A DNA stretch of 64,000 nt from Nemertoderma westbladi (GCA_032718475.1 JAUCBJ010008829.1:62001-126000), one strand, 5' to 3'; positions 14,976 to 55,600 are shown, numbered from the stretch's first letter. Notes: generated by a model from the letters alone, not told the origin. Made by a program: numbers and translations.

Positions 14976-17900
14976 ATGTCTGACGCAAAGCAGAACCTGT
15001 CAGACAGTCTACTAGATACAACCGAGAGCGAAGGGACAGCGGAGGGGCCGCAAAAGAGAGATGCCATTGACATCTATCTGTCAGACTATCAACGCTTTGT
15101 AGGGGACAAAGAGTTGAGGAGAAGGCTGGAGGGGCTTAGCCCTAATAGTGAAGGAACCAAGCTTGTGCTGGACGCAATCGATGCGGAAATGTTAGCGGCG
15201 AACCAAGCTAAATTTGATGAACAACTCCGCATCATACGAGTCCAAGTAAAGAAAAAAGTTATAGAAGACAGAAAGAAAATAGCAGCAGCAGTGGCAGCTG
15301 CAGAAGCAGAAAGAAAAGCGACAGTGGCAGAAGCGGAAAGAAAGGCGGCAGTGGCAGCAGCCGAAGCGGAAAGAAAAGCGGCAGAGGCAGTGGCAGAAGC
15401 AGAACGGAGAGCGACTGAAGAAACCACCCAACTAGAATTGGAATACATTCAGGAGAATCAAGACTGCATAAATAAACAGTTAACAGCTAGTAATATGCAG
15501 ATGATGAATCGATCTACTCCCAAAAGACAGGGATATACATCATCTGAGGAAGGCGATACCACCGATACTGAAGGCAAAAGAAATAGATCTCACCTAAGCA
15601 GACGTAAAAGAACATCCTACCGTCAGAAATTGCCTGATTTGCCTCCAGCTGTTAGAAGGCAACTAAATAACACCAACTTAGAGAGTACAGAACCCACAGA
15701 CCAAATAATTACAATAGAAAGACTCCCTACTATAGTAGATGAGCCTGAAATAAGTAGGCCTGTTCTTGAAATCACCCCTTCGGTAATAGATACACCTATG
15801 CTCCCTGAAGCTACCTATAAATTCCCTCGGCATAGCACTAAGCTACCTGTGCCCCGTAGAACTGCCCAGGAGACAGTTCAGGTCCTGGACCCCGAGCGAA
15901 ATATTCCAAATTTGTCGCCCGTTGTCCCTCGTCTGCCCACTACGACGTTGGCGGATCCCGTTTCGGCGGTTGATTGGGTAGACGAGAGACGGCGGGGGAT
16001 GGATATTCTCCTCGGAGAGATGAAGGAGAATCGGATACGCTCCTCCCAACAGGTCCGAGAGTTGGAAGGGACTGTCCAACATTTAAAGGGAACAGTGAGG
16101 GAAAGTAAGTTAGAGTTGCAAGAAGTGCAGCAAAATATCGCGCTAGAGCGCGATAAATTAGTAAATTTACAAAAGGGTATACCACCACCCCCTGTAACAA
16201 TGTGTCAACCCGTTAGGTCTGAAGTATCTCATGCGCAAGGTGTGGAGCCTACACGCATTTATACTGCTAGCGAAGTAGAAACTCCTATAATGAACCCTAT
16301 TAAGGGTAATTATATACCTGTTGATAATGACATTCCCTATAGAACTGATCATAATCCGAGAAATTTATATACCGATAACTCGATATTAAATAACACGATG
16401 GCCCAAGAAAGTTTTACGCGTCAAATGGCTAGAACCGAAGCCCGGCAAGCGGTAAAGGTGGGAGAGATCGTCAAGTTCAATGGAGATGAGATGAAATGGT
16501 TACCTTTTAATGAATATTATAAAGATAACATACAGAACTCTGTACTATCTAACGGAGAGAAACTTAGATTCCTCATCGAATGTTTGGAAGGACCTCCCAA
16601 GTCAATGGCGTTAAAATTTATTGGACATCCAGATGGATTAAGACAAGTTTGGGATACACTAAACATCAGGTATGGTAATAGGACTAACATAGCTAGGTAT
16701 TTATATGCGAAATTAATGGCGCCCCGAAAGTTTCTTAGCAGCGGGATTATAGAGTTTTCCGATGAGATTCAGGAGATCTGTAGACAACTAGATTGGTTAG
16801 GTAAGTCTCATGAATACCAGAATTCTATGGTTGTAGGAGCCTTAGCATCTACTTTGCCCAAGGGTGGAGTAGGTACACGCTGGGACAAGAAGGTGTTATA
16901 TATGATGGAACAACAACGACGAGACCCTACCATGACTGATCTCATGTCATTCTTAGATAGAGAAGTGAAATTACAGCTCCTAAGGCAGTCCAGAGAGAAG
17001 ACATTGGAAAACAAGGTAAGTGAGAAACCCGTTTCTAGGAGAAGGGTAACACCAGTATGTTATACCGACGACGGTGAAAGCCAAACTTCTCAAGGAGAGG
17101 ACAGCGGGAAAGACACTGACAGATCTTATTATGTCAATAAAATGCCTAAAGATCAGGTAAGTAAATCCGAGTCTCGACCCAATGACAGAAGGGAACCGGT
17201 ACAAAAAACCCTTCCTACGTCTCCTAAAAGAATTCAGGTGAGAAAGCCCGAGGAAAGAACAAGTGTGCACCACATAGCACAGGTTAAAGTAAGTAACATC
17301 AAGCCGAAATGTGTGCTGTGCGACGGGCCCCACCGTTTAAATGCGTGTGATAAATTCCTGAGGAAATCACTAAAGGATAGACGTGAAGTCATGTGGGATA
17401 AGCGGTTGTGTTATAATTGCCTCAGACGAGGACACCAACGGCGAACCTGTTACTCTGACGCAAGGTGTGCAAAGTGCGGCGCAAAACATCATATCTTGTT
17501 GCACACGGAATTCGAACGAAACAGCCCGAGTCAGGTAAGTGAGTCCGAACTACATGTCCAATTCAGTGATGTGAACGACACTGACCAAAGTTCTGAGTGG
17601 GAAGGATTCTATACGGACGAATTCTCCGATGAAAACGAATCCTGTTACTTAATAAACACCACCGCAGTGTATCGAGCACTCATGTATGAGAAAGACACAG
17701 ACAGCGACCTCACCCTAACTACTTCAGATCAACAACCATCTTGGAAAGCGCCAACTTCCAATATAGGAATCCGAGAATTTCCTGTAGTCCAGTTACGGGT
17801 CCACGGACCTCAGAAGAGCTATATAGTGAACGCCCTCCTGGACTCCGGTAGCACAGGAACATTCATCGATAAAGAACTAGCCGAAGTCATCTTTGCTGGA

Positions 17901-31970: not shown

Positions 31971-34900
31971 GTTCCGAAAACGCGTTCTTTTACGCGACGA
32001 TGTTGTTATTGACAAGTTCAATTCAAGATTAAAATAGGAGTTATCGGCCCGACGGATAATTGGCTTTCCTGAACTTAATTTAAATATTTGTTTTTGGAAT
32101 ATTGCAGGATGCAAGGACAAACTTTCTAGTGGTAGTATTATATCGTTCATAGTAAACTATGATTTAGTTTATATATCAGAGACTAAAACGGCCGCCAGTG
32201 TTTCTGTACCAGGTTTTGCGACTATTTCAAACCCGTCAAAGTCACCACATCGTGGTGGTATAATCTTACTTGTTAAATACGCTATACTCGACAGAATCAA
32301 ATCTATAGATAAGTCAGTAGAAGGTCAGATATGGATTGAGTTTGACTATATAGCTGATATATTGTTTGGTGGAGTCTATATTCCGCCGAATGATAGTCTG
32401 TACTACGATGATTCATTATTCGCCGAACTGCACCACAAATTTGGCTCGTCAAAAGATTTCGTTGCGTTAGGTGATTTTAACGCTCGTGTCGGCATTCCAC
32501 AAATCTATGATATCGACAATGAGATAAATACAAGTAATCTACACTATAGAAATGTATCTGATCTAACAGTTAACAAAAGTGGTCAAATTCTACAGTGCAT
32601 TTGCACAGCTACAAATTCGATTGTTTGTAATAATCTTTGTTCTGGGTACTCTAACCTAGGAGGAGGTCTAACTTATAATTAAGGTGGTAAATGGGTGTCA
32701 GAAATCGATCTTTGCGTGTCGAGCTCTAATATTTATGGTACAATTGCAACGCTCGACGTACATCAAGACATTCTAGGTTCCGATCACGCACCAATATCTA
32801 TTTTGGTTAAGGTTGATAGAGAAAACTTTCGTGTTGATAAGAAGGGTCTATTTACTCGTAGTATGAGTTTGGGTCATTCAATTTATGAAGACGGTGACGC
32901 TGTTAAGCTTACTGGAGTAGCCATGGATATCAAAGGACTTTCCCATAAATTTGTCGAATGCGACAAGTTTGAGGCTAGGATTGCGCAATGTGATCCTCCT
33001 GTTATCTCGGATACTAACGATGTCGATACGTTGTTGGACTCGTTCTTTGGGACAATCGATGAAGCAGCCCGATCGTGTCGAAGATCTCGTAACGATCCAG
33101 TGATCACAAGGGATCCTGATGCATGTCGATGGGATCATATCATCAACTCAAATGATCCTAAAAGTTTATGGAAAGCTCTTGACTGGAATGGAACCATTTC
33201 ATTTGAAGATGAGAATAATGCAAATACTGCACCTGAAGATGAGGAGTTTAGGACTCATTTTGAGTCTCTTCTCAATCCTAGCGAACCTGCAGACATTGAC
33301 TCCGACATCACTAGTACTATTTACGTACCATGTCTGGATAATCCATTTACTCAACGCGAATTTGCCGAAGGTTTGGCCAATATGAAAACCAACAAAGGCT
33401 ATATTGGGGTAAGCCCCGGCTTGCTAACTAGGCTTCCAGGTGCATGGCTAATATTCATCTTATCAATCTTTAATTTAATATTTATTGGTGCAATATATCC
33501 TGTAAAATGGGCTGTTAGTAAATTAATAACGTGTTTCAAATCTGGTAATAGATTAGATTGTGGCAATTACCGTGGTCTTAGTATAATGACAACACTGTTA
33601 AAGTTTTTTGATATATTAATTTACAATCGGTTAAAATATTGGATTAATTTAGATAAATGTCAGGCAGGAGCTCAAAAAGGCCGAGGGTGCATTGAACACA
33701 TCCTCGGACTTCGACTCATTATAGATTATGCAATTTTCAAGAAGTCTAAATTATACGTCGTTTTCATTGATTTTAGTAAGGCGTATGACCGTGTTCCACG
33801 TGATAAAATGTTTGAACTACTTAAATCTTCAGGGTGTGGTTTTCGGATGTTATTTATTATTAAAGCGCTGTATTCTGCAACAAAATCTATCTTAAGATCT
33901 GCTGTAATTCTGACTACTATTGGGGTCCGCCAGGGGGCGCCTTCAAGCGGGATTTTATTTTGTATGTATCTTAATAAACTTGTTATCATGTTAAAAGAAG
34001 CTGTTAAATGTGATGTTTTCCTTGGTGCTTTAGTTTGCCTTTTGTTTATGGACGATACAGTAATAGTATCAACTTCTAGGAAAAATTGTGAAATTAAATT
34101 ACGTGCTCTATACGATTATTGTACTGTTTTTGGTATGGTAATTAATCAAAAGAAAAGCGAATTTTTTGTAATAAACGGTAATGTTGATGACAGTAAACCA
34201 TTTATTTTAGGTACTACAGTTATTTCTACATGTGAATTTTATGTTTATTTAGGTTCTGTTTTCGCCGCTGATGGCCGCATATCTACTGCACTAAAACACC
34301 ATATTATCATATGTGAGAGAACAATTAATAAATTTGCAATATTTTGCAGTAAGAATACATCACTCCCATTCGCTTTAAAGAAAAAGGTTTTTGATGCATA
34401 TGTATAATATCTTCTATTTTATATGGTTGTGAAACATGGTTGTCTGTTAATGCATGTACTAAGCAAATTGAACCGGTCTTCAATAGGTTAATTAAAACTT
34501 TACTTTCAGTACGTCAACAAACACCAATTGATTTGTGCTTAATTGAGTTTAATATCCCACCACTTAGTCACTATATTGTAAATGCTAGACTTAAATATGT
34601 GAAAAATATGTTTAAGTTACCCGTGCACGATACTGATGTGCCTTTATATTATATTTATGATCTTTGTAAAGCTGCAAACACTCCCGGATATCGTTGTTTA
34701 ATGTCAGCACTTGACTACAAGGTCGATGACCCCCTAACTTCCGTCCGTTTATGTGTATTAAATAAACCACTTTCAGCTACCAAGTTCCGTACTTACAGTG
34801 ACACTATCAACCCTGGCCTTACTGCTCATCCACTATACAGTTGCTTGAAACCCATCATCCCAGACTTTAAACGTGTCCATTTCACCAGACTCCGTCTCAT

Positions 34901-35301
34901 GTCACATAGACTCCGAGTGGAAACTGGTCGATGGACTCGTGTTGCTCCTGAGTTACGTGTTTGCTATTGTGATAATACCTCTGTACAAAATGAACACCAC
35001 GTACTATTAAAATGCCCGATATCTGAACACATTAGAATTAAGTTTGTACAGTTAGATTTCACCGATTTATCTTCATTATTTTCTACCGATTTACTAGTTG
35101 ATCTGTGCAGTTATGTCTCTGAAGTCCTATGTCTTTATTATTGAATTAATCTAGTGCTAATTACTCTAGTTATTGATATTATTTCACGTATTAATTATTG
35201 TGCTATATATATATATACATATTATTCAGAAATTGATTTGGAATTGTGCGCCATTATTATGATATTATAGGCCGGACGGGCTGCATACCGTCTACTACTA
35301 C
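31971..35301 (+). mobile_element. RTEX-like LINE, 5'-truncated within the end of ORF1; APE-RT ORF2 with a few stops or frameshifts
   Basis: ORF1 tail RVLLRDDVVIDKF. Motifs FWNIAG, ISETK, GVYIPP, GDFNARVG, GSDH, FIDFSKAYD, GVRQG, FMDD. C-terminus RLRLMSHRLRVETGRW..C.C..EHHVLLKCP. (CTA)n tail. No TSD. Confidence 0.88.
32695..35144 (+). pseudogene. RTEX-like ORF2, RT and C-terminal Cys/His domain
   Basis: ORFs 32695-34407 and 34440-35144 are separated by a frameshift. The APE part lies at ~32080-32680. Confidence 0.88.
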
Positions 35302-35371
35302 TAGGAATCCGAAAATTTCCTGTAGTCCAGTTACGGGTCCACGGACCTCAAAGGAGCTATATAGTGAACGC

Positions 35372-36683
35372 TGTTCGCGGTATTTCAATTTTCCATAACA
35401 CGAGTTGAATATTTTTGTATTTATTTAAAATTGATTATTCCGATATTACTACTGGGTGCGGGACCATGGGTTTTGGGCACATTCAATAAACTGGGGGCGA
35501 TTTATGGGCGAACTTTGGGGCAACTTACAGGGTACGGGAATAATTTCATAGTTATAAGGGCCAGGGGGGGATGGAAAATGCAAGCAGTATTCAGGTTAGC
35601 CTGAGTACTATTAGGCCCTGGCCAACTTCCTGCTGCCTGTAGGGGTGGATTTGGTAATGCGCCAGGCCTAAAGGACAAGGACTGCCCTTAGTGGTCCCTG
35701 GCCAACAGCAGCCATTACGAGACTGAAGAGAACTCGGACTGCTGACTGCTTGTGTCAGGGATTTGCGACGGGCACCGACGGCCCCTTAGTAGCCAAGCCG
35801 TTCTGGTTCTCGATGATCGAACCCCGGGGTTCGTGAGGGGTGGAGCGGACACGCGAACGGGTGGCCAACTAACGACTGCCCCCTGACCTAAGCCGTACTG
35901 GTTCTCGATGACCGATCCCTTCGGGGTTCGCGAGGGGTGGGACGGACATGCGAAAGGGCTGGCCACAGGACGGGTTTGACGAGAACTGCCCTTAGCGGTC
36001 TCTGGTCAACGGCAGCTACTATGAGACTGAAAAGAACTCGGAACGCTGACTGCTTGTACTGGGATTTGCGACGGGAACTGACGACAGACCCCTTAGCCAA
36101 GCCGTACTGGTTCTCGATGATCGTTCCCTTCGGGGTTCGTGAGGGGTGGAACGGACACGCGAACGGGTCCACTGACACGACAGACTCCTAGCCAAGCCGT
36201 ACTGGTTCTCGATGACCGAACCCTTCAGGGTTCGAGAGGGGTGGTACGGATACGCGACAGAGTCTACCGACTGGACCGACCCTTAGCCAAGCCGTGCTGG
36301 TTCTCGATGATCGTTCCCTTCGGGGTTCGTGAGGGGTGGAACGGACACGCGACAGGGTCGACCGACACCGACACTACGGCACTAAGACTGGGACCGAGGG
36401 AAAATCTGGGGAACATTAGGTAGGCTAAAATTCTGAGCGAACAGTGGGTTATTAAATAATATACCGTAGGGATTTCTATTATCGTGTATAATTATTGTGA
36501 ATATTTGGTGTATATTGATTTGGGGAAGCCCAAAATTATTCTTAATCAAGTTTCAATGATGTTGAACGGGTTTCAACTATAGGAAGTTACATTAAAGAGT
36601 ATATCCAACTAATGCAGCTTTTTATCAACCGCAAACTTGCATCTCAGAAAATATTCCCTCCCCACAATCAATATCCGGTGACT
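35372..36683 (+). repeat. 5' LTR of C (last ~78 bp deleted)
   Basis: Matches 42317-43839 apart from a ~220-bp and a 9-bp indel. Confidence 0.93.
35681..36362 (+). repeat. Array of structured-RNA-like repeats in the C LTR (5 type-A and 2 type-B units; 3' LTR copy 42627-43525 has 6 type-A)
   Basis: Type A: TAGCCAAGCCGTACTGGTTCTCGATGAYCGWWCCCTTCGGGGTTCGTGAGGGGTGGAACGGACACGCGA with covarying closing stems. Type B contains TACGAGACTGAAAAGAACTCGGAAC. Confidence 0.9.
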
Positions 36684-38306
36684 CGAAGCAACGCGGTGGA
36701 AATTTATAGTTGTCTGACTGAGCCTGCAAAGGACTCGGGCAGGCACTATAACGTCGCGACGATCACCCAACTAGCGGCGTCTTTACATCGGTTGATCGAG
36801 CGAACTTCATCCATGAGACGGCTCGTCTATCACGTTATAACCCTTCGCAACTTCCTACGGTGGAAAAACAACAAACCGATAGTTCAACGGAATATACAAG
36901 AACTCATTATTGCGGAGAAGTGTATTGTTAGATATGTCCAGAAAGAAAGTTTCCCCGATGAATGGGAACAACTTAGTGCGGGCAAAACGTTGAAACCGGA
37001 CAGCCCAGTCTACCAACTGAGACCAATGATGGGAGAGGACGGACTGATCCGACTGAATACCCGGATGGCAAACGCCCCGGTCGAATATGAGGTTAAATAC
37101 CCGGCGCTTCTGCCCGGAACGTCGACACTAGCTAAGCTATTAATTCTACAATGTCACGAGGACAACCACCACGCAGGACAGAATTGGATTATAGCTAATA
37201 TAAGACAAAGATATTGGATCACCCACATCCAGCCACTGATCCGGAAAGTGTTGAAACGTTGCTTCACCTGCAGACGTTACCTAGCGCCACCAATCACCCA
37301 AAAGATGGCCGACTTACCAGCCACCCGTCTACAAGCGGATTCCCCACCATTCTACGTCACCAGAGTGGACTGTTTCGGACCGTTCACGGTTATTGAACGA
37401 CGATCCAACATCAAATGCTGGGGAGCCATCTTCACCTGCCTAAGGTCTAGGGCAATTTACCTAGATATCGTGGTAAATCTGACACAACACGCATTCATCA
37501 ACGCTCTGCGTCGGTTCGTGGCGAACAACGGGACATGCCGCCACATGTATTCCGATAATGGTACAAACTTTGTGGGAGGAGAAAGAGAACTTAGAGAGGT
37601 GATCGAGGGATGGTTTACCGATAACACTGCATCCCAAGTCTGGAAGGAACACCAGATACAGTGGCACTTCCAGACCCCCTTAGCACCCCATACGAGCGGG
37701 GTATGGGAGAAACTGATCGACCTAGTGAAACGATCCATGCGCGTCGCTCTAGGCGATACCCGGGTAACCCATGACACCCTCCGCACAACATTCTGCGAGA
37801 TCACGGCTACCCTGAACAACCGACCCATTGTTCCTATCCGCGACGACCCCACAGACCTGGAACCCCTCACTCCTAACCACTTACTGGGGAGACCCAAAAC
37901 CCACCTCCTCCCGGAAACCATGTTCCCGGATCCCAACGAGATCGCGAAACATACAAACTGGAAAAAGGCCCAAGCGTTGGCAGCGCATTGGTGGAGAATT
38001 TGGGCCCAGGAGTACCTCATAACCCTCCGGACCAGGAGGAAATGGAACAACACCTACCGGAACGTCGCAGTTGGCGACATGGTACTAGTTAAAGAAGATC
38101 TCAAAGACCGCGTTCACTGGCCTGTGGCGCGGGTCGTGACCATACACCCAAGCAAAGACGGACTTGCGAGGACTGTGACGATACGAACGAAATCGGGCCA
38201 CTACCAACGCCCCATCCAGAAGCTGTGCCTTCTTGAAGGCAATGACAGTGGTGATTCTACGAGAGGTCCTGCTGTGGACATTGGTGACAATTATAAACCC
38301 GTGTAA
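36684..38306 (+). CDS. BEL/Pao integrase of element C (open frame, N-terminus lost)
   Basis: H..HHAG...CFTC zinc domain, VDCFGPF, YSDNGTNF, GVWEKLI, LTPNH, VGDMVLV, WPVARV, DGLART, RPIQKL. Confidence 0.93.
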   Translation, partial: RSNAVEIYSCLTEPAKDSGRHYNVATITQLAASLHRLIERTSSMRRLVYHVITLRNFLRWKNNKPIVQRNIQELIIAEKCIVRYVQKESFPDEWEQLSAGKTLKPDSPVYQLRPMMGEDGLIRLNTRMANAPVEYEVKYPALLPGTSTLAKLLILQCHEDNHHAGQNWIIANIRQRYWITHIQPLIRKVLKRCFTCRRYLAPPITQKMADLPATRLQADSPPFYVTRVDCFGPFTVIERRSNIKCWGAIFTCLRSRAIYLDIVVNLTQHAFINALRRFVANNGTCRHMYSDNGTNFVGGERELREVIEGWFTDNTASQVWKEHQIQWHFQTPLAPHTSGVWEKLIDLVKRSMRVALGDTRVTHDTLRTTFCEITATLNNRPIVPIRDDPTDLEPLTPNHLLGRPKTHLLPETMFPDPNEIAKHTNWKKAQALAAHWWRIWAQEYLITLRTRRKWNNTYRNVAVGDMVLVKEDLKDRVHWPVARVVTIHPSKDGLARTVTIRTKSGHYQRPIQKLCLLEGNDSGDSTRGPAVDIGDNYKPV

Positions 38307-38569
38307 CCATTCTCATCATGTTGACAAACTCTTTTTAACTGTGATTTATCGACAACGAGTTATGGACCCCCTTTAAAACCAACTGTAACCACGCAATGGT
38401 ATTTGTGTTTCCTCGTGTGTTATGTGGAGTCCAGCATCACCCTGCAGATGTTTCGACTGACGCAGGGTCGTTTATGTATTGTTTACCCTGATTTTGGTCA
38501 TTGGGACCAACGATATTGGATTATTGGAAATGGAAAAGATTTGAAGTGGAATTCATTGTATTCATCGCA

Positions 38570-39003
38570 GTATGTTATGTTGTCCGTTGCGTGCGCAGTT
38601 CGGGGCGTAGGCGGTGTAACGAGTCCAGCTGTAGATCCTGGATTGCCGCGCAACACCCCCTCTACCCCGTTATTCTGGTGGGTCCATGGTGCATCCACAT
38701 GACTTCGACGATAGAGGGTTTTATGTTTCTCAGTCGCGTTATTCTGGTGGGACCGTTGCGTGGATTTTGGGGCGTAGGCGGTGTAACGAGTCCAGCTGTA
38801 GATCCCAGAATGTTGCGTAACCCCATCCCACATGACTTCGTCGACTGAGCTTTATGTTGTTGGGAGTGTTATTCTGGTGGGTCCATGGTGCATCCACGTG
38901 ACTTCACTCCTAGCGTCTTCATTGTCCGTTATGTGCGCAGTTTGGGGCGTAGGCGGTGTAACGAGTCCAGCTGTAGATCCCAGATTGCCGCGTAACACCC
39001 CTT
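38570..39003 (+). repeat. Three ~170-bp tandem units between IN and the accessory ORF
   Basis: GGGGCGTAGGCGGTGTAACGAGTCCAGCTGTAGATCC at ~38602, ~38769 and ~38944. Confidence 0.9.
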
Positions 39004-39550
39004 CCACGACAAAGATTAACCAAAGAAAATGATTGAATATAGTTGGAAACGATGAAAAGGATCAGACAACTCTACTATAAACCTGAATGATGACGCGTAT
39101 GCTGATGAAAATGAAATGATGCGCACCCTGGTGCTGCGCTTATAACAAATGATGATAGCCGGGGGGCTATAAACCCAATGATGATGTGGAAATAAATAAA
39201 TGTGAAATAAATGGTGGAACTAAATGTTGAAATACATGTGGAAAGAAATGAAATGAGATGAAATAATAATGAAATGAAAAAAGACAAAAAAAGGTATAAA
39301 AGAGTCTAAAGAAAAGAATTAGAAAAAAGAAAGGACAAAAAAGTCATAAAAAACTGGTTGGATATTATGAATAGCTATAGTAACTGTAAATGCTGAATGT
39401 ATTAGCAATAAGATGATAGATGTCTATATAGCAATATTATTTAATAAACTGAATTAAATAAAAAACTGAATTATTCTGCTATCGCTATAGTTTCAGACTT
39501 TCTGGACTTATAATTAACTGATCTAATTTGTAACGGATATAATCGTAAAT

Positions 39551-42151
39551 ATGGACCCAAATCGCCAAATTATCGGCGAATTACGTAACACGATAGATCT
39601 ACTGGAATATTCGCAACCCGGATCCCCTGACTTTGATACAAATTGGAGCACCCTGCTAAATGAGAACGTGCGAGTCATTAAATTCACCGGGCGAGAGGGA
39701 CCGGATTCTAAGAATCTACGAGCCCTCCGGTTAGCCGATGCTAGTACGAGACTGAAAAGAACTCGGAACGCAAAGGCAACCGGAGGGGACGATTCGTCGT
39801 TTTGGGAAACGTTCCGGCAGAGCGTCTACAGATCCCGATGTTTGATCTACGACAACGAGGGAAACGCGATGCCCACCTCGAAAGCGATTACGTTGGCGAG
39901 ATGTCAAAGTTTCGTCGACGACAAGAGTACGTACCTCGCCCACTGGGGAAACCTGTCAGAGTGTACGGCGACGCTTCGAGAGGAACGCGTATCGATTATC
40001 CAGAACCGCGACGACTACCAAGAAAAGTACGGGGCGAGAGAATACGGTCGATCCTTAGTCGTCGTCCTCGGAACCCTGGACGGTTTGGTACTGGTGTGCC
40101 GAATATTCCCGACACCCAGACAGGAAGTGCAGGCAGCCGGAGCGATCTGGTTGCTGCCTCCGGAAATCCAAAAGATCCTCTTCGACTTCGACGTCATTAA
40201 AATCGGGTCGGATATCAAGGCGGACGTCCGGAATGACTACGCGAACGCTCCTGCAGGAAGAAACCGACGGGACGACCTCAACGCCCTTAGCCATTGCATC
40301 GACACTCAAACGCTACTAGCCTGGTTACGATTCGCCGAGTTCATGCGAGGATTCCAAGAGGTGAGACCAACGAAATCTGGGATCGGCTACCTCGCTGTGC
40401 TAAACGACGGTATCGACTTCAAACCCCAGAAATTCCGGGACTATAATAAAATATATGGTGGATACCCGGGATTAGAAATAAAGAGCGAGCGAGAGGGTCG
40501 ATGGAAGGACGTTGATCGGAAGTGGACGATACACCAAAGATGGGAGAATCCCGATCGACGGAACTACGTTTACGTCGTTATGGAATGCTACACCGTCGCT
40601 AAGTTTATCTGTAAAACTCTCGATAACCGTATTACGGCGGTCCCCCTTTCCTTCGTCGACTACGACTGGAACGAGGTTATAAACCACGCGTTTAAAGCAG
40701 TCGAGAACATTACACCGGGAGAATCGAAAACACCCGCCGTTATCGATTCCTGGGACGAGAGCGGACCTTACGACATCCCTACGATTACCGAACTTCTCGG
40801 TGCGGAGGAGCCTCTGATCTCCTCGGAAGGGGAAGAGATATGGCTAAACGAGGGTGTTCTACTCTCCACCCCGAAGCGACAACTCGAGCCGGAGGCCGCG
40901 TATGGACCAGCCGCCAAACGGGTTGCCTCGGCCGAACCGATGAAGAGAGCAGGCGTTTACACTCCACGCGGCTCCGGTAGCCCCGCGAGGGAGGTGGCTA
41001 CTACAGCTGCATTGAGCGACTTCGGCGACATATGCCAACGGTTATCCCCGTATCCTTTCCCGGGTGGCGAAGATTGGTCGTCGGAGATTCCGAGTACCAG
41101 CCACCAACGGACCCGCGCAGCGATACTGATCGAGGAGGGCCCCAGCGACGCGCCGACCCCCGACGATCTCCTCGGTATCCCTCCGTCGAAAACCCCGGCA
41201 CCTCTTCGCCGACCAGCGGTGGCTACTACACCCGCCGTTCCTCAGGAGCCTATGCGACTAACCCGTTGGTACGCCAAGCAAACTGAATGGATCCACCGCC
41301 AGAAACGGTCATCCGAGTTGAGACCAACGGGACACAAAGAAGGTTATCGGAGCGAGAACCTATTACGCAAAAGCCTAGCATTCCGCGGGCTACCGACCAC
41401 CGAGAATATTCCGAAGAGCGACCGACGACTTGAATACTACGTCGGCGTCCCGATTCCGATATTCCCCGGTCGAGAGATGCAGTTGGAGGTATGCGGCGAC
41501 TGCGGCTCGGAGCAGTGCCCACGCGGCAGAAGGTATTGGGTTACCGATTCTTGCCTCCAGCTCCTCGGGATACTCTATTGCCCATACTGCGCGACATCGG
41601 GCCACGACGTTTCCGTCTGCCCAATCCTTTATAACCTCTGCACCACGTGCGGTTTCCGTGGACATTCCTCTAGCCCCCGCTGCTATATCAAATGTCCAAC
41701 CAAAGACGTTACCGCTATGGGCAATATGGTCATGTTTGAAACATACGCAAACAGCCATTTAAAGACCAAGGTTCGGAGAAACGCTCGGAATATCGCGCAG
41801 GAGATGGCGTGCGGATATTTCTCCTTCCCGGAACGCCTCCACACGTCGGCCATGCTACCTTTCCATTACGTGGATCTACTACTGAGCGCCGGATTATTCG
41901 GTCCATTTGAAGTCATTAGACGATTATACTCGTATAAAGAGGAGTTCGGTGACGGAGAATGGTTCCTAGAGGCACGCAAATCTGAGTTGGAAAGACGAAC
42001 CGACATGATCCCGATGCCTTCGAAAGGAAGAGCCGCCAGGAGACAAGCCGAAGCGTTACTCACAATGGATGTTGACGCTCCTCTACCAGCCATAGCGATC
42101 GATGAGAGTCGACGGGCGAAGAGACGAAAGGCGTATCAGAGAAAGAAATAG
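39551..42151 (+). CDS. Accessory 866-aa protein: DEDDy (WRN/EXD-like) 3'-5' exonuclease domain, disordered linker, Cys/His zinc knuckles
   Basis: ExoI IYDNEG, LPPEIQKILFD..VIKIGSDIKAD (ExoII), CIDTQ, KSGIGYL, ExoIII-like YVVMEC. C-terminal CGDCG, CPYC...GH....CP.L...CTTCGFRGH. Uninterrupted ORF. Confidence 0.75.
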   Translation: MDPNRQIIGELRNTIDLLEYSQPGSPDFDTNWSTLLNENVRVIKFTGREGPDSKNLRALRLADASTRLKRTRNAKATGGDDSSFWETFRQSVYRSRCLIYDNEGNAMPTSKAITLARCQSFVDDKSTYLAHWGNLSECTATLREERVSIIQNRDDYQEKYGAREYGRSLVVVLGTLDGLVLVCRIFPTPRQEVQAAGAIWLLPPEIQKILFDFDVIKIGSDIKADVRNDYANAPAGRNRRDDLNALSHCIDTQTLLAWLRFAEFMRGFQEVRPTKSGIGYLAVLNDGIDFKPQKFRDYNKIYGGYPGLEIKSEREGRWKDVDRKWTIHQRWENPDRRNYVYVVMECYTVAKFICKTLDNRITAVPLSFVDYDWNEVINHAFKAVENITPGESKTPAVIDSWDESGPYDIPTITELLGAEEPLISSEGEEIWLNEGVLLSTPKRQLEPEAAYGPAAKRVASAEPMKRAGVYTPRGSGSPAREVATTAALSDFGDICQRLSPYPFPGGEDWSSEIPSTSHQRTRAAILIEEGPSDAPTPDDLLGIPPSKTPAPLRRPAVATTPAVPQEPMRLTRWYAKQTEWIHRQKRSSELRPTGHKEGYRSENLLRKSLAFRGLPTTENIPKSDRRLEYYVGVPIPIFPGREMQLEVCGDCGSEQCPRGRRYWVTDSCLQLLGILYCPYCATSGHDVSVCPILYNLCTTCGFRGHSSSPRCYIKCPTKDVTAMGNMVMFETYANSHLKTKVRRNARNIAQEMACGYFSFPERLHTSAMLPFHYVDLLLSAGLFGPFEVIRRLYSYKEEFGDGEWFLEARKSELERRTDMIPMPSKGRAARRQAEALLTMDVDAPLPAIAIDESRRAKRRKAYQRKK

Positions 42152-42316
42152 TGGATCGGGATATTCCAGGAACATTTATCGAACATTTATTTTTATACAA
42201 ACTCTAGGCCAAATTAATTAAAAACTATGCAATATTAAATTTGGGTTTTTTATATTGGGAATGACCTACGCAAACTCAATCGACCGACAGACTTCACGAA
42301 GGTCATTGGGGGGGAC

Positions 42317-43917
42317 TGTTCGCGGTATTTCAATTTTCCATAACGCGAGTTGAATATTTTTGTATTTATTTAAAATTGATTATTCCGATATTACTACTGG
42401 GTGCGGGACCATGGGTTTTGGGCACATTCAATAAACTGGGGGCGATTTATGGGCGAACTTTGGGGCAACTTACAGGGTACGGGAATAATTTCATAGTTAT
42501 AAGGGCCAGGGGGGGATGGAAAATGCAAGCAGTATTCAGGTTAGCCTGAGTACTATTAGGCCCTGGCCAACTTCCTGCTGCCTGTAGGGGTGGATTTGGT
42601 AATGCGCCAGGCCTAAAGGACAAGGACTGCCCTTAGCGGTCCCTGGCCAACAGCAGCCATTACGAGACTGAAAAGAACTCGGACCGCTGACTGCTTGTGT
42701 CAGGGATTTGCGACGGGCACCGACGGCCCCTTAGTAGCCAAGCCGTTCTGGTTCTCGATGATCGAACCCCGGGGTTCGTGAGGGGTGGAGCGGACACGCG
42801 AACGGGTGGCCAACTAACGACTGCCCCCTGACCTAAGCCGTACTGGTTCTCGATGACCGATCCCTTCGGGGTTCGCGAGGGGTGGGACGGACATGCGAAA
42901 GGGCTGGCCACAGGACGGGTTTGACGAGAACTGCCCTTAGCGGTCTCTGGTCAACGGCAGCTACTACGAGACTGAAAAGAACTCGGAACGCTGACTGCTT
43001 GTACTGGGATTTGCGACGGGAACCGACGACAGACCCCTTAGCCAAGCCGTACTGGTTCTCGATGATCGTTCCCTTCGGGGTTCGTGAGGGGTGGAACGGA
43101 CACGCGATGGGGTCGAAAGACAAAGGACTAGACTCGACTAGACTCTACTGGCCTACCGACTGTTCGGAGCAGTTTCTCGGCTGCCGAAGCGACTACGAGC
43201 CTGAAACGGACTCGGAAAGCCTAGGTGGTTGGGTTTCTGTGATGAACCGACGGACCCCTAGCCAAGCCGTTCTGGTTCTCGATGATCGAACCCTTCGGGG
43301 TTCGTGAGGGGTGGAACGGACACGCGAACGGGTCCACCGACACGACAGACTCCTAGCCAAGCCGTACTGGTTCTCGATGACCGAACCCTTCGGGGTTCGA
43401 GAGGGGTGGTACGGATACGCGACAGAGTCTACCGACTGGACCGACCCTTAGCCAAGCCGTGCTGGTTCTCGATGATCGTTCCCTTCGGGGTTCGTGAGGG
43501 GTGGAACGGACACGCGACAGGGTCGACCGACACCGACACTACGGCACTAAGACTGGGACCGAGGGAAAATCTGGGGAACATTAGGTAGGCTAAAATTCTG
43601 AGCGAATAGTGGGTTATTAAATAATATACCGTAGGGATTTCTATTATCGTGTATAATTATTTGGTGTATATTGATTTGGGGAAGCCCAAAATTATTCTTA
43701 ATCAAGTTTCAATGATGTTGAACGGGTTTCAACTATAGGAAGTTACATTAAAGAGTATATCCAACTAATGCAGCTTTTTATCAACCGCAAACTTGCATCT
43801 CAGAAAATATTCCCTCCCCACAATCAATATCCGGTGACTGGCCGGGGCTCGGTGGTCTGTTAAGTCACGTCTCCAGCATCGGCGTTTTTCCCCCCTGGTG
43901 TAGGGATAACGGCAACA
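42317..43917 (+). repeat. 3' LTR of C (1.6 kb)
   Basis: TGTTCGCGG...GGCAACA. Confidence 0.93.
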
Positions 43918-43922
43918 AACGC

Positions 43923-46900
43923 CCTCCTGGACTCCGGTAGCACAGGAACATTCATCGATAAAGATCTAGCCGAGGACATCTTTGCTGGACAACCCAAGTT
44001 CCGAACCAAGCTAAAAATGTCAGGAATCATGCAGGTTTGGAAATCTACTGTAGCTGCCGACTATTATGTAGGTGCGTTGTCCACTCCACAGGATAAACTA
44101 GGAGAACACAGTATAAGGTCAGTAAAAATGGTAGCAATAAAGAACTTCGCTACCACCCAAGTGGAACCTTATAATTGGGATGAAGATGATCATGCCCAAC
44201 AACTTAACATCCCTAGATTAGACACCGATTATCCTGGAGTACAAATATTAATCGGTCAAAACACGCATGAGGCGCTGGAGACATTGGAGAAACGACCTGC
44301 TCAACCGCAACCACTTCAGACCTATGCGGTAAGAACTAGAGTAGGTTGGTACCTTACTGGACCTTCCCGTAGAACGCTCAGAGAAAGACTACCTCAAGAT
44401 CGCGTCTGCCAAGTGAGTGAATGGGAAGATGATACTAGTGAGGGAGACGATCCAACTGAGGGAACTCCATACTCCTCAGATAACGACGACGTCCACCAAC
44501 TCTTCGACGAGGAGAATACCATTGATCTCCTTAAGGAAAACGAGACTTGGCAAAACCAAGTGAACCTATGTCAACTCCTCCATCCATCAGAGCGAGAAGC
44601 GTATAATGACGAGCTAAATGACGTCATTGAACGTTATAATGCCAAGACTCGGGATGAACATGCCGTACGATTCTTTACGCAAGAGGCGGTAGAGCCCAAT
44701 TCCTACGATAAGGCCTTAGCGGTGGAAGAGGAAAGGGCCAAGCAGATCCAAGAGACAACTACACGTTTCCTCAAAGATCAAGGTAGGTATGAAATCGGTC
44801 TACCTTTCCGCAAGAGAGAACCGAAGTTCATCAATAACAGACCCTTGGCGGAGAAAAGAATCGCGCAACTCCATCGACGCCTTACGGCAAATTCTTCAGC
44901 TAAAGAAATGTATCAAACACAGCTGAAGAAATTTATCAGCAAGGGATATGCGGAGCGAGTACCGGAAGAAACACCTATAACTGAAAGAACGTATTACTTA
45001 ACTCACCATTACGTTCCCAAACCCGGTAAACCACATGAAGTGAGAGTAGTGTTTGATGGCTCCGCTCTCTACATGGGCCAATCCCTTAATTCTGAATTGT
45101 TACCCGGACCCAACTTACTTCAATCCTTGTTGGGAATTCTTTTAAGATTGAGACAATACTCAATCGCTTTCGCCTCAGATATAGAAGGCATGTTATTACA
45201 AGTCAAGGTGCTGGATAGGGATCGAGATAGCCTACGATTTCTGTGGTGGCCCGAAGGAGACCTCAACCAGAAACCGGTGGAGTACTGGATGACCATCCAG
45301 GCCTTTGGGATAATCTCAAGCCCTTCCAACGCCTGTTCAGTGGTGCGTACCACTGCGGATGACAACCGTGAAGCCTTCTCTAAGGAAGTGATTGACAACA
45401 TCAAGCGGGACATATACATGGACGATAATCTGAAGTCCCTTCCATCAGTTGAAGAAGCCATTGAGGTCAGTAAAGGAACGGTAGAGTGCTTAAAAAAGGG
45501 TGGATTTCGATTAACTAAATTCACCAGCAACTCCCGTGAGTTTCTGGAGTCAATCCCTGTAGAAGATCGAGGAGCGAAAGACCTAGATTTAATCAAGGAT
45601 GATCTTCCAGAAACCAAGACACTCGGCTTGAAATAGGACACAGAGAGAGATATCCTGTTTTTCCAGCTAAAACAGCGAGATAATCCAGTTCGAACCAAAC
45701 GGATTTGTTTAAGTATACTGAGCACTTATTTCGATCCATTGGGATTTATAAGCCCAGTTATATTGATTGCTCGGAGTTTGGTACAACAAATGTGGCTTGA
45801 AAACCACTCATGGGACGATCCACTTAAGGGAGAATTATTAAAGAAGTGGATGAAATGGGAAGATTCTCTGCCGGCCATCGAGGATTTTATAATTTCCCGT
45901 TCATATTTTGGTCATGTTCTCCCTACGTATTCCTATCAACTCCATGTGTTTGGAGATGCCAGCGATATGGGAATAGGTATAGTAGCCTACCTAAGAGTGG
46001 AAACTCCGGATGGAATCAAAGTCTCCTTGGTTACCTCTAAGGCATTAATCAACAATAAGTTGAAAGTTCCTCGAGCGGAGTTAAAGGCGGCTCTATACGC
46101 TACAGCCATCGGCCGGAATGTAACCGAACAGATCGATTATCCATTAGAGAAAACTGTCTATTGGACCGACGCTTTACTCGTGTTAGAGTATATAACCAAT
46201 GAAGTCTGTCAGTTCAGCGTCTTCGTTACCAACAGAGTAGCCATCATACATAGTCGCACGACGATGGATCAATGGAGACATTGCCCCGGAACGATTAATC
46301 CAGCAGACATCGCCTCCAGGGGAGCGACTCCACATGAATTGGTAAATACTCCAGAATGGTTAGGTGGACCCGACTTCCTCTACAAAGAAGAAGAAGAATG
46401 GCCTCCCCATCTTACAACCGCAGAGATTAGATAGGCCAAGGGAGCGGAGAAAGTTAAACCTAAAACTCGAGTGAGTAAATCGAAGTTATTTAAACCTACG
46501 GTCGATCTATCTGTATTACTTACTTCCGGAGATGACGCTTTGGATCAGAAGCCCACAGCCACAAATAAAGAGGTATTGGAAATCCGTGACAAGGATTGGA
46601 AATCTGGAATACCAGACATCTCGCAAGGACTCTCACCTCTACTTCAGAGAGCGATACATCACTACAGTTCCTGGAATCGGCTCTGTAAGGCCGTCACATA
46701 TTTAAAACGATGCTTTCATCATCATTACTCCAGGACGAAGACCAATAGTGATGCCGTTGTTAAAGATCTTCCCAAATACAAGATATCCGACAGGTTTCTA
46801 AAGGAGAAGATCAGTTACCAGGAGCATGAGGAAACCAACAAGCAGATACTGAGACTCCTACAATGCTATGAAGATTCCGATAAGTATTTCCTGTTGTTGA

Positions 46901-52689: not shown

Positions 52690-55600
52690 AAATGTCTTTA
52701 GTGCAATATTCTCGGCTGCAATATACACTAACACTAAGGATGCGTCCGTCCAATAAAATAATGTTAAGGTCGTGTCGAACTCCGCTATTATCTGCTTACT
52801 TACCTTGACCGAGACTACTGCCACCTGCAACTCTGCACGAGGGACAGTCATGTATTTGTTCTACTAACGGTTGTTGTGTTATAGGCTGTAATTCGTCGTG
52901 TCTATCCTTTGGCTTGTCACCACCTGAAAACTCATAGGACATGGGTACTCGTGTATACCAACCTAATATAGTCCTATGGGCATGTGGTCCATTTACATGC
53001 GGTTCAGCTGGTCTCGTTTCCCATATCTGGTGTGTGATCAACTGTTCTGCACCAATCAACATAGAAACAATCCTATAACCTACCTGGTGTCTGGGTACTC
53101 TAAGCTTGTCAAAATACTCCTGTGCTATGGGACTCATCGGTGGCACCTTACCTAACTGCCTGCCGAACCCCTTCATAGCTAGACACTTAAATCCGTCCAA
53201 TGGCAAAGCTCTTCGTTCTTGTTGAGTATGTTGGTCTCTTGGAAGTAAGGATTCTAATTCTACCGAAATTATGTGTCCCTTGAGGTCCCCTACCCCGTGC
53301 ATAGACTTCAACTCTATTTGGATCTCCTCGGCGTCCTGGAAGCTAGAAACAGCTCTCGCCACTTCCTCATCGATATAGGATAATGTGGACGCAGTGTCCA
53401 ACATCACATATATTCTTTTCAATCCCTTATCCCCAGTAAGTTTCACCGGAATCACGCTAAATATTTCCGACGTGGCCGATGATAAATACGTCCGCGCGCT
53501 TGTCGATGAACTATCCGCAGTGAAACCTTGGTAGGTCACTTCTCTTGCGCTCGACTCGCCATCCTCGTCCGACGAACCTGGTTGATAACCATCGTCCTGA
53601 ATGCTGGTGTACATATTTCTCCTTATCGATACGGGTTCTCTGCTCCCCTTCCTTTGAGGATTTCGCTGTAAGTAACGGTCCGTTGGGGTGTGGAAATCCG
53701 CATGTAGCAACTTGTGATGTAGTCTGCCGCATTCCATGCATCCATCCTTGCTGTTTGGGCACTGCCGCCGTACATGGCCTGGCGCAAGACATGCCCAACA
53801 GGTGTCCAACGTCCGCACTTGAACTCTTCTATGTTCCGAATTTAATTCTTTGAACCGTCTGCAACAATCTAACTTATGATCGTCAGATCTTACCTCCTTT
53901 AGCAAGCAGAATTGGCAACCTACAAATCCATCCGGCAACTCCTGTTGCTTTAACCTAGGTCTATCTAACCGCTCACCTGGCCATACTCGCGAGTCTGATC
54001 TAAAGGCTGGGGTACTCGAATTATATCTGTCTACTGAGTTAAATGTCACAGTGGTCCTGTCATTGTCAAAACTTACCATAGACTTACCGGTAACAGGTTT
54101 AGACTCCCTCATATTCTCCTCTGAGAAATTTGATTTCATCTCTGCTACTGCGTCTGTGGCTATCATGTCATGAATGTGTTGAAGTGTCAACACTTTACCT
54201 TGGCTCTCCAACTTATTCTCTAATTTGTGCCATTTCTGTCTGTAACGCATATTTAAACGTCTTATCACGCTCTTCAAAACTTCGGCGTGATCACCATGGT
54301 GAGGTAGATTCACCATCCTCAAGCTGCCCAATGCGTTCGAAATAGCGTTCGCTAAGTTCAACAGCTCTAACGGAGTTGTAATCCTTCTGCCCTTACCCAA
54401 GTCTTCCACTATCGACTGTGCCATCTTGGTTTTATTCCCATAGATGTTGCTAAGCGTCTTCATTGCTAACTCGAATGCTCTTTCATTGCCGACGAAGTTG
54501 TCAGCAATTGCTCTAGGTTCTCGATGGAGCATTTGAAGCAAATAGTTGAATTTCTCGTTGGGAGTAAAGGTGCTGTTGGTCAGCTGTTTGTCGACATAGG
54601 TTTTGAACGTCCTCCAGTACTTATGGTTGCCCATAAACTTCTGGGGTTGTTGCGTCGGCAGTCCTTGCCTAGCGGCAAACTTACCTATGTCTCTAAGGGT
54701 TGCGTCGTTCCGGGTTAACAAATGGTTTAGTTCCGCAGGGTTATTAAGTCTGGTCCTTTCCCGGTGGTTAAACTTACCTGCTCTGCGTCCGTCCTTCTTT
54801 CTTTATAGTTTCGGGACTTCTGACGTCTCATGTCTTCTTCTTCATCGCTTGATTCAGTGTCAGTCCTTAGCGCTCGCGATGGTTTGCGCGCCGAAGCCCT
54901 GACCCAAGCATCCTGAATAAACCTTTCCGCCGAATTTTCGAAATTAGGATTATGTATAGTTGGGACAGATGCCCTTACCTGAGGTCTATGTGGTATAGTT
55001 GCCTCCGATATACGTACTCGTTGACTAGGTTGGACTTTATCTGACTCAGGCCTGCTAGGATTTGAATTACTTCTTACCTGGGCTGCTTCCTTTAACCATA
55101 GGTTGCTAAGCATGTCCGTTATAGGTTGGATGTGCGGCGATATAGCTTGCGCTAAACTAGCACTTAACTCATCCCTCGTAATAAATTCCTGGCTAGGGTT
55201 CTGTTGTATAGTCGGCTCTATCTGAGTAATCCGCTGTCTCTCATATGATCCCTCTTTCGGTTTAACCCGTAAGTTATCCGTCAAACTGTGTCGGCGCTCC
55301 GTCCGCGTATTCCAAAAGCGCGGGTTCGGTTCGCCAAATACTCGTCCCGTTGGAGTTTCTCTAAACTCTTCGTTCTCGCGTTCGGTATGTAGTGGTGCGG
55401 TGTTCTGATGCCGTGGATTCTGCGCGATGGGTGGAGCACTAATACCAACTGGTGTGCGATATGTAGAGAACGGTTTAGCGATCCGAGTACTCGTAATAGC
55501 TGGACTGGGTATAGGAATTCCGGTCGTTGTCAACTCGCGTATAGTCGGAGTTCTCGCTTCCTGTTCGGCCTTCTGCAGTGCGAACAGTTCTCGCAACTCA

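Follow-up and report, generated by a model that had tools for sequence, protein, structure and literature searches.

A hairpin of the long terminal repeats recurs inside the accessory gene of a BEL/Pao-type retrotransposon of Nemertoderma westbladi: a candidate response element

Why does a hairpin of the long terminal repeats (LTRs) of a retrotransposon also stand inside the coding sequence of its accessory gene? The question is raised by a 64,000-nt stretch of DNA from Nemertoderma westbladi (GCA_032718475.1 JAUCBJ010008829.1:62001-126000; the window, taken at its full length), which carries a BEL/Pao-type LTR retrotransposon with an intact accessory open reading frame, ORF3. Two kinds of hairpin unit, type A and type B, form an array in the LTRs, and one additional type-B copy lies in ORF3. 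A reading made from the sequence alone had proposed that the apex of this hairpin is a protein-recognition element, carried by both ends of the genomic RNA and by the accessory mRNA, which could link the ORF3 protein to the LTR array in an operator or autoregulatory circuit. Little is known of what accessory ORFs do in LTR retrotransposons, exonuclease-like ORF3s among them, although PMC5408684 suggests roles; the present element pairs a candidate protein with a short sequence, present in several natural variants, that is a candidate for its target. On the evidence given below, the hairpin is very probably a selected cis-acting RNA structure. The full mechanism that we favor, in which it is a protein docking site (a response element in the style of Rev or CERV) read by ORF3, is put forward as a tentative proposal.

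From the base upward, the ORF3 hairpin consists of a 10-bp stem, a bulged A, a 3-bp stem, a 2x2 loop and another 3-bp stem; above these lie a loop formed by U.C and AGUA/GAA, a 4-bp stem, a 1x2 loop and a C-UGAAA-A-G apex. The 65 nt folded as previously drawn, with a free energy of -33.3 kcal/mol and a z-score of -6.5, and 0 of 200 shuffled sequences were as stable. A fold scan of ORF3 (20 shuffles per 70-nt window) placed the hairpin first among 286 windows, with z -7.85 compared with -4.09 for the runner-up. When the hairpin was folded in a 400-nt context, the stem pairs that were sampled had a probability of at least 0.97, and the two apical pairs had 0.84-0.85. Because the reverse strand folds about equally well (z -6.3), the strand is not given by fold energy alone; we infer from the G-U pairs of LTR unit B3 and from the loop motif that the plus strand is favored. 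Two mini-hairpins flanking the element were dropped from consideration, their pair probability being 0.14.

The apex of the ORF3 hairpin is identical over 27 nt to that of unit B2 of the 3' LTR. This identity is exact, as the sequence-only reading stated, with zero extension on either side and a chance expectation of ~1e-11. Relative to the ORF3 27-mer, six copies of the type-B apex are present in the window at 0-4 mismatches (Table 1). They include the four variant copies that had been placed at ~35715, 36020, 42661 and 43194, the first of which begins at 35716. Unit B3 is missing from the 5' LTR, which is without a 220-nt block. A search of both strands of the window at up to 9 mismatches gave one further match only, on the minus strand with 9 mismatches. 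A covariance model built from the six copies recovered all six strongly, together with two weak matches in 64 kb, both of which were dropped. One of these lies at 36719-36738. The other (55469-55501, minus strand, E 0.005) had z +0.7 and an unstable fold, and was taken as probably a chance match because a stable fold is absent; it sits in a gag-region frame of another BEL/Pao element and shows both internal-loop halves and a very short apex.

The lower stems had been described as unrelated to one another. Comparison of the copies overturned this description. Over the 20 nt 5' of the apex, aligned ungapped, ORF3 matched B2 at 13/20 positions (p 0.0004), B3 at 11/20 (p 0.007) and B1 at 10/20 (p 0.024); outside the hairpin, likeness was at chance level. 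With the single bulged A set aside, the 10-bp lower stems of ORF3 and B3 differed at 9 of 20 positions, all of them transitions, and all 10 pairs were kept. Two pairs showed compensatory double changes (U-A vs C-G) and five went from G-U in B3 to Watson-Crick in ORF3. The probability of keeping all 10 pairs by chance was 0.003-0.004 given the transition share of the family, and 0.05-0.06 if only transitions were considered. As judged from these stems, the ORF3 hairpin is a full-length diverged homologue of B3, although a mosaic one, its stem being of B3 type and its apex of B2 type. In B3 itself, the second internal loop sets GAA (43186-43188) opposite CUA (43221-43223), like half a loop E reversed; when B3 is read in the ORF3 frame, a stop codon falls at this loop, where ORF3 has a lysine codon.

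Table 1. Features of the retrotransposon, its LTR hairpin units and ORF3, in window coordinates
Feature	Position	Strand	Remarks
ORF3 type-B hairpin, 65 nt	39723..39787	+	codons 58-79
27-nt apex of ORF3 hairpin, same as 3' LTR unit B2	39745..39771	+	exact match to 42965-42991
5' LTR unit B1 apex	35716..35742	+	3 mismatches
5' LTR unit B2 apex	36020..36046	+	1 mismatch
3' LTR unit B1	42620..42724, apex 42661-42687	+	1 mismatch; long hairpin, z -5.0
3' LTR unit B2	42926..43028, apex 42965-42991	+	0 mismatches
3' LTR unit B3	43176..43233, apex match at 43194	+	4 mismatches
LTR retrotransposon carrying the ORF3 hairpin	35372-43917	+	
5' LTR	35372..36699	+	3' end lost to internal deletion; 2 type-B and 5 type-A units
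3' LTR, 1601 bp, TGTT...AACA	42317..43917	+	G-run polypurine tract just before; 3 type-B and 6 type-A units
5-bp target-site duplication	left 35367..35371, right 43918-43922		
Residual pol frame, integrase	36546..38306	+	Integrase_H2C2, rve, DUF5641
Candidate 3' splice site upstream of ORF3 ATG	39491..39496	+	sequence inspection
ORF3, intact, 866 aa	39551..42151	+	

Contigs of the family showed that the hairpin is not peculiar to this copy. The hairpin stretch was present in 6 of 9 listed runs from four studies, the top runs of which may include the source of the window; four runs were mapped on 39400-42330 and four on 39680-39840, three of the latter with cover and the fourth, X7, without contigs. 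The hairpin is not a one-off: contigs of four studies cover the region. Since it is present across the family and structurally constrained, the outcome that would have undone the sequence-only reading, a lone template switch free of constraint, did not arise. No indels or joints across the hairpin were listed for the contigs mapped on either interval. One X3 contig was identical over all 161 nt around the hairpin. Another (record 10), ~88% identical, passed 39713-39954 ungapped, and X1 contigs with 16 and 13 differing letters also passed the hairpin ungapped. Nine sites in 39680-39840 varied at a frequency of at least 2%. Five of these lie within the hairpin: the bulged A, the base adjacent to it, the bulged G of loop E and both bases of the 1x2 loop, which form a C-G pair in B3. 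If linked to the variant at the bulged A, as we infer from their similar depth, the one beside it would do no more than move the bulge. The last three of the five variants occur together in an X5 contig (record 12) anchored in ORF3 on both sides, and all three match B3. A second ORF3 allele thus appears to have a B3-type apex, which suggests that the LTR array and ORF3 have exchanged sequence repeatedly. Among the best-supported 40 of 263 differences in ORF3, 28 were synonymous, and ORF3 overall looks to be under purifying selection. Around the hairpin, by contrast, the protein sequence is loosely constrained, as would suit selection on the RNA: amino-acid-changing variants made up 7/9 of those at 39680-39840, compared with 12/40 of the best-supported ones in the rest of ORF3 (Fisher p 0.019). 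Relative to most contigs, the ORF3 of the window has many near-fixed, mainly synonymous differences, with 0/40 before 39870; this pattern hints at a sub-lineage or a recombinant copy.

The apex had been interpreted as a loop E capped by a GNRA tetraloop. In the ORF3 copy AGUA (39743-39746) lies opposite GAA (39766-39768) between helices, which agrees with the loop-E or S-turn (bulged-G, sarcin-ricin) motif as described for AGUA/GAA in PMC4695836. As features of the family the two parts of the interpretation failed. Canonical AGUA/GAA is found in one of six copies, that of ORF3, the LTR copies having ACUA or AUUA, and GAC in B1; the bulged G is likewise kept in 1/6 copies in the window and is C in one ORF3-anchored contig. 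A GAAA loop on a U-A closing pair is present in four of six; the closing pair of B3 is U.C, and B1 of the 5' LTR has GAAG. What the copies conserve is neither the bulged G nor the GNRA loop but a loop-E-like core, A-N-U-A opposite G-A-(A/C), and an apex C-U-G-A-A-x-x-G that is invariant in all six. UGAAA stands on a C-G pair in 5/6 copies and agrees with the T-loop consensus YGNRA (10.1101/2022.12.26.521914), with a single extruded base after it; a T-loop may fit the apex as well as a GNRA loop does. The type-A units (n=11; 35789-36365 and 42734-43530) are in most cases capped by UUCG; each seems to resemble a kink-turn in combining tandem G-A pairs with a bulge of 3 nt. An array of kink-turn-like modules inside an LTR is unusual in itself.

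These motifs bear on the idea that the apex is a T-loop making an RNA-RNA contact that needs no protein: its partner would be the LTR array, another copy of the genome or a tRNA, and it would serve folding, dimerisation or strand transfer. We consider this idea improbable. All six copies retain the apex sequence, whereas B3 has lost the U-A closing pair; UGAAA suits the T-loop consensus, and loop E together with kink-turn-like units recalls the modules of T-box leaders (PMC4695836). However, only one extruded base follows UGAAA, compared with two in the FMN/cobalamin T-loops of 10.1101/2022.12.26.521914, no receptor was recognized, and the Rfam covariance models, T-box included, gave no match at E up to 5 in 35000-44200. 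Identity of the hairpin as a T-box riboswitch was itself rejected, the T-box architecture being absent in addition to the Rfam match.

We next considered where the hairpins would lie in the transcripts. The LTR contains a single AATAAA, at 42430, upstream of the array of type-B and type-A units, and ATTAAA at 43616 and 43747. Because the sole AATAAA precedes it, the array may be limited to the 5' leader as part of U5; alternatively, it may belong to R and be present at both RNA ends. Sequence inspection also gave a candidate splice donor near 35594. Splicing from this donor (~35594) to the acceptor at 39496 would skip the array; with polyadenylation at the upstream signal, the message for ORF3 would then keep the embedded hairpin as its sole copy. 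Upstream of the array, ~30 nt past TATAA, 42531-42554 (and 35586-35609) forms a perfect 10-bp hairpin (z -5.4) with a possible splice donor at its loop.

A site in the ORF3 message that is very stable and resembles the presumed LTR target would also be expected of a translational operator, through which the ORF3 protein represses its own synthesis. The position of the hairpin makes this version unlikely. It begins 172 nt after an ATG in good context, for which reason we regard the operator as the weaker form of the idea: such a distance is too great to block initiation, and elongating ribosomes usually clear complexes of this kind. A -1 frameshift signal was rejected as well; no slippery heptamer was found just upstream of the hairpin, which excludes a frameshift switch too.

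The ORF3 protein is the candidate reader. It is organized as an N-terminal extension, which holds the hairpin, an exonuclease-like domain at approximately aa 145-350, a linker, CCHC knuckles (a strict one at aa 677-690) and a basic C-terminus. A scan of 1.84 billion representative proteins gave two ORF3 matches, P0001 and P0002. The layout of P0001 in two domains is that of ORF3, which it matches both N-terminally and around the knuckles, with pairwise E values of 4e-15 and 4e-11. This metagenomic protein, 648 aa long, keeps ExoI intact, has its knuckles in tandem and ends in a basic tail; it is probably the ORF3 of a related element and offers the best lead towards distant hairpin copies. Residues 58-79, encoded by the hairpin, are in the part of the extension that P0001 lacks, the alignment beginning at aa 168. 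Exonuclease leads came from P0001 (PF01612 at E 0.2; 30/30 named Atlas matches, best score 0.94) and from ORF3 itself, which scored 0.90 against an exonuclease Atlas cluster behind unnamed clusters at 0.92. In a three-sequence alignment, the ExoI motif D-x-E was present in both P0001 and P0002 and absent from ORF3 in either plausible register. Because the homologues keep this motif and ORF3 is without it, we predict that ORF3 has a catalytically dead 3'-5' exonuclease-like fold. A D-N-E at aa 100-102 was rejected as ExoI; it lies ~50 residues before the position aligned to the ExoI of the homologues. The knuckles of ORF3 match human immunodeficiency virus (HIV) nucleocapsid at E 0.0013. Together with the exonuclease leads and the basic tail, this match makes ORF3 look like an RNA-binding protein, in keeping with its earlier description as an exonuclease-knuckle protein. 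No relatives beyond P0001 were found in a 90% protein collection searched with ORF3, and PDB sequences gave no match. Locus searches with ORF3, its alignment and the integrase gave no related loci; the apex pattern had no match in viral and metagenome contigs, nor the LTR array in phages.

Taken together, these results suggest the following mechanism. A type-B unit of the LTR would have been captured into the N-terminal extension of ORF3, and its apex refreshed from the LTR array by template switching or gene conversion. ORF3 would act as a nuclease-dead RNA-binding adaptor, presumably nuclear, that steers the nuclear export or the stability of the element's RNAs, with the hairpin as its ligand. 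Through the embedded copy, the subgenomic message for ORF3 would have a site of its own, perhaps not provided by the LTR array, and a feedback loop would be closed. Within the element the structured RNA is conserved, as judged by sequence, which is what a response element calls for. Our preference for ORF3 as the reader has two grounds: the accessory protein of the element is predicted to be nuclear and to bind RNA, and the gene for this protein holds the sole extra copy of the hairpin. The most specific version, a Rev-like circuit assembled from borrowed parts, in which a dead exonuclease with knuckles reads an LTR array of loop E, T-loop and kink-turn modules and a conversion-matched copy in its own gene provides self-regulation, is doubtful. 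If ORF3 is the ligand, the element would provide a Rev-like protein-RNA pair in BEL/Pao and show a coding sequence evolving in concert with an LTR array.

Several results weigh against this proposal. The register of the ORF3/B3 stem comparison was fixed by hand from the folds, and MAFFT put the gap at the end instead. Over the upper 10 pairs, the six copies show one double change, which was matched by 76/500 shuffles and is not significant. That four of the five hairpin variant sites are unpaired favors structural constraint (p 0.04), but three of the five variants also occur in LTR contigs mapping there, and without them p is 0.54. The X5 contig that carries these three has a depth of only 3.2, and one X1 contig over 39680-39840 has 2 gaps whose place is unlisted. 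The 44 paired positions had 0 variants at a frequency of at least 5%, compared with 2.9 expected, at a p of only 0.05. A reduction of synonymous variation at the hairpin is unsupported, because the immediate flanks (65 nt) were equally without a listed variant. None of the mapped contigs was spliced, and none had a joint at 39496; no run with the stretch was listed as RNA, X5 being only presumed to be so. As regards the protein, Pfam gave no exonuclease match for ORF3, and weak knuckle matches only (E 0.13-8.5). Structure models of ORF3 were of low confidence (mean pLDDT 33 and 42) and leave the exonuclease fold unconfirmed; Foldseek with the ORF3 model returned zero matches, and a wide structure search with the low-confidence model placed DnaQ epsilon (Z 3.3) level with helicases. 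Lastly, the two counts of amino-acid-changing variants, around the hairpin and in the rest of ORF3, were drawn at different thresholds.

The tolerance of amino-acid change around the hairpin would also be expected if capture was neutral, a template switch having put an LTR unit into a permissive N-terminal extension where occasional conversion keeps the apex of a functionless insert. The region is missing from P0001, the mosaic pattern suggests exchange, and the population statistics are weak. Nevertheless we give this explanation little credence: the diverged stem has not decayed, with 10/10 pairs kept and all five G-U pairs of B3 being Watson-Crick in ORF3, and the hairpin is the top fold of the 286 ORF3 windows.

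A different ligand is a stronger rival, though still rather unlikely in our estimate. The hairpin would be a selected cis element read by a host factor in export, transport or stability, like a constitutive transport element or the I-factor signal, or by Gag in packaging, and its location in ORF3 would reflect mere tolerance. Kink-turns bind host proteins, and the neighboring type-A units seem kink-turn-like. The structural evidence fits such a ligand equally, ORF3 is part of the genomic RNA, and a host-bound stem-loop within retrotransposon coding sequence is known from the I-factor localization signal (ILS), as described in PMC13186709. Reading by a host factor or Gag, however, leaves unexplained why the sole non-LTR copy among 6 strong matches in 64 kb lies in the accessory gene, and why the element has a predicted RNA-binding accessory protein besides Gag. 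If a host factor does bind, the hairpin would be a new transport or export element. Recognition by ORF3 would account for both the location and the protein, and is the reading that we retain.

The class of the element was assigned from its LTRs and from integrase/DUF5641, the reverse transcriptase (RT) and gag having been deleted from this copy; on these grounds we regard it as a BEL/Pao-type LTR retrotransposon. It has TG...CA LTRs, a polypurine tract and a 5-bp target-site duplication, and DUF5641 follows the integrase (E 9.7e-30), a domain that we take to be tied to BEL/Pao. The internal deletion, which broke the 5' LTR at ~36699, took the primer site, gag, protease, RT and RNase H. Up to the breakpoint, the LTR pair differs by 9 scattered substitutions, an indel of 9 nt and the 220-nt block, seven extra mismatches adjoining the breakpoint being treated as alignment noise; because these differences are few, the insertion is considered young. 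It disrupts the protease gene of a second, host BEL/Pao element; in another copy of that host, the site is still empty (17829-17833). This host element has DUF5641 too, together with Peptidase_A17 and DUF1759. The surrounding region (11531-52549) consists of nested insertions with several copies of the host BEL/Pao element, one of which is broken by a long interspersed nuclear element (32038-35300) and by the element studied here; ~1.2 kb LTR-like repeats (11539/22063; 24993/51339) and ~290-nt internal repeats are also present. Between the integrase and ORF3, 38580-39007 contains three related ~86-nt repeats with a 40-nt conserved core and inconsistent folding.

Structured response elements are familiar from retroviruses: the Rev response element (RRE) of HIV lies in env, and the response element RxRE read by Rex of human T-lymphotropic virus lies in the LTR. 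Like Rev/RRE, which pairs an accessory protein with a structured response element (PMC10309623), the present element has a structured RNA in its coding sequence and its LTR and encodes an accessory protein, the basic stretch of which may be an RNA-binding or nuclear signal. Unlike in Rev/RRE, one modular hairpin recurs within the accessory gene as well as in an array of the LTR, and ORF3, the putative reader, is an exonuclease-like/knuckle fusion. CERV of the Caenorhabditis elegans element Cer1 is an accessory protein with a cysteine loop and an enzyme-like domain expected to be inactive, and is needed for genomic RNA export (PMC10309623). As described, it resembles ORF3: each is the accessory protein of an LTR retrotransposon and has a cysteine motif besides an enzyme-like domain that was captured. 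CERV differs in having a G-protein-like domain, and the accessible text names no RNA target element for it. Egalitarian provides a further parallel: according to PMC13186709, its exonuclease-homology domain binds bulged stem-loops without catalytic residues, the ILS in the coding sequence of the I-factor retrotransposon being one target. Egalitarian has LOTUS-like domains and belongs to the host, whereas the candidate reader ORF3 is encoded by the element. CERV and Egalitarian are thus precedents for dead enzyme folds in such roles. The ORF3 AGUA/GAA, the UGAAA apex and the 3-nt bulge with tandem G-A of type-A units are like the modules of T-box leaders (PMC4695836; 10.1101/2022.12.26.521914); unlike in T-box leaders, the bulged base varies among copies, and neither the architecture nor an Rfam match is present. 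Exonuclease ORF3s in LTR elements were already known (PMC5408684; PMC6338049), as were response elements in coding sequence. The bdelloid elements Juno and Vesta have a DnaQ-like DEDDy exonuclease ORF3 downstream of pol, with catalytic residues kept and LTRs of 159-551 bp (PMC5408684). The element described here likewise has an ORF3 downstream of pol, the exonuclease-like domain of which may also be DnaQ-like. Juno and Vesta belong to other clades; the present element is BEL/Pao-type, with a 1.6-kb LTR, added knuckles, a degenerate ExoI and a hairpin array. A literature search, in which coverage of subscription journals was thin, yielded no description of such an array or of its ORF3 copy. What appears to be new is the modular hairpin array in a long BEL/Pao LTR and its covarying, apparently converted copy inside the accessory gene.

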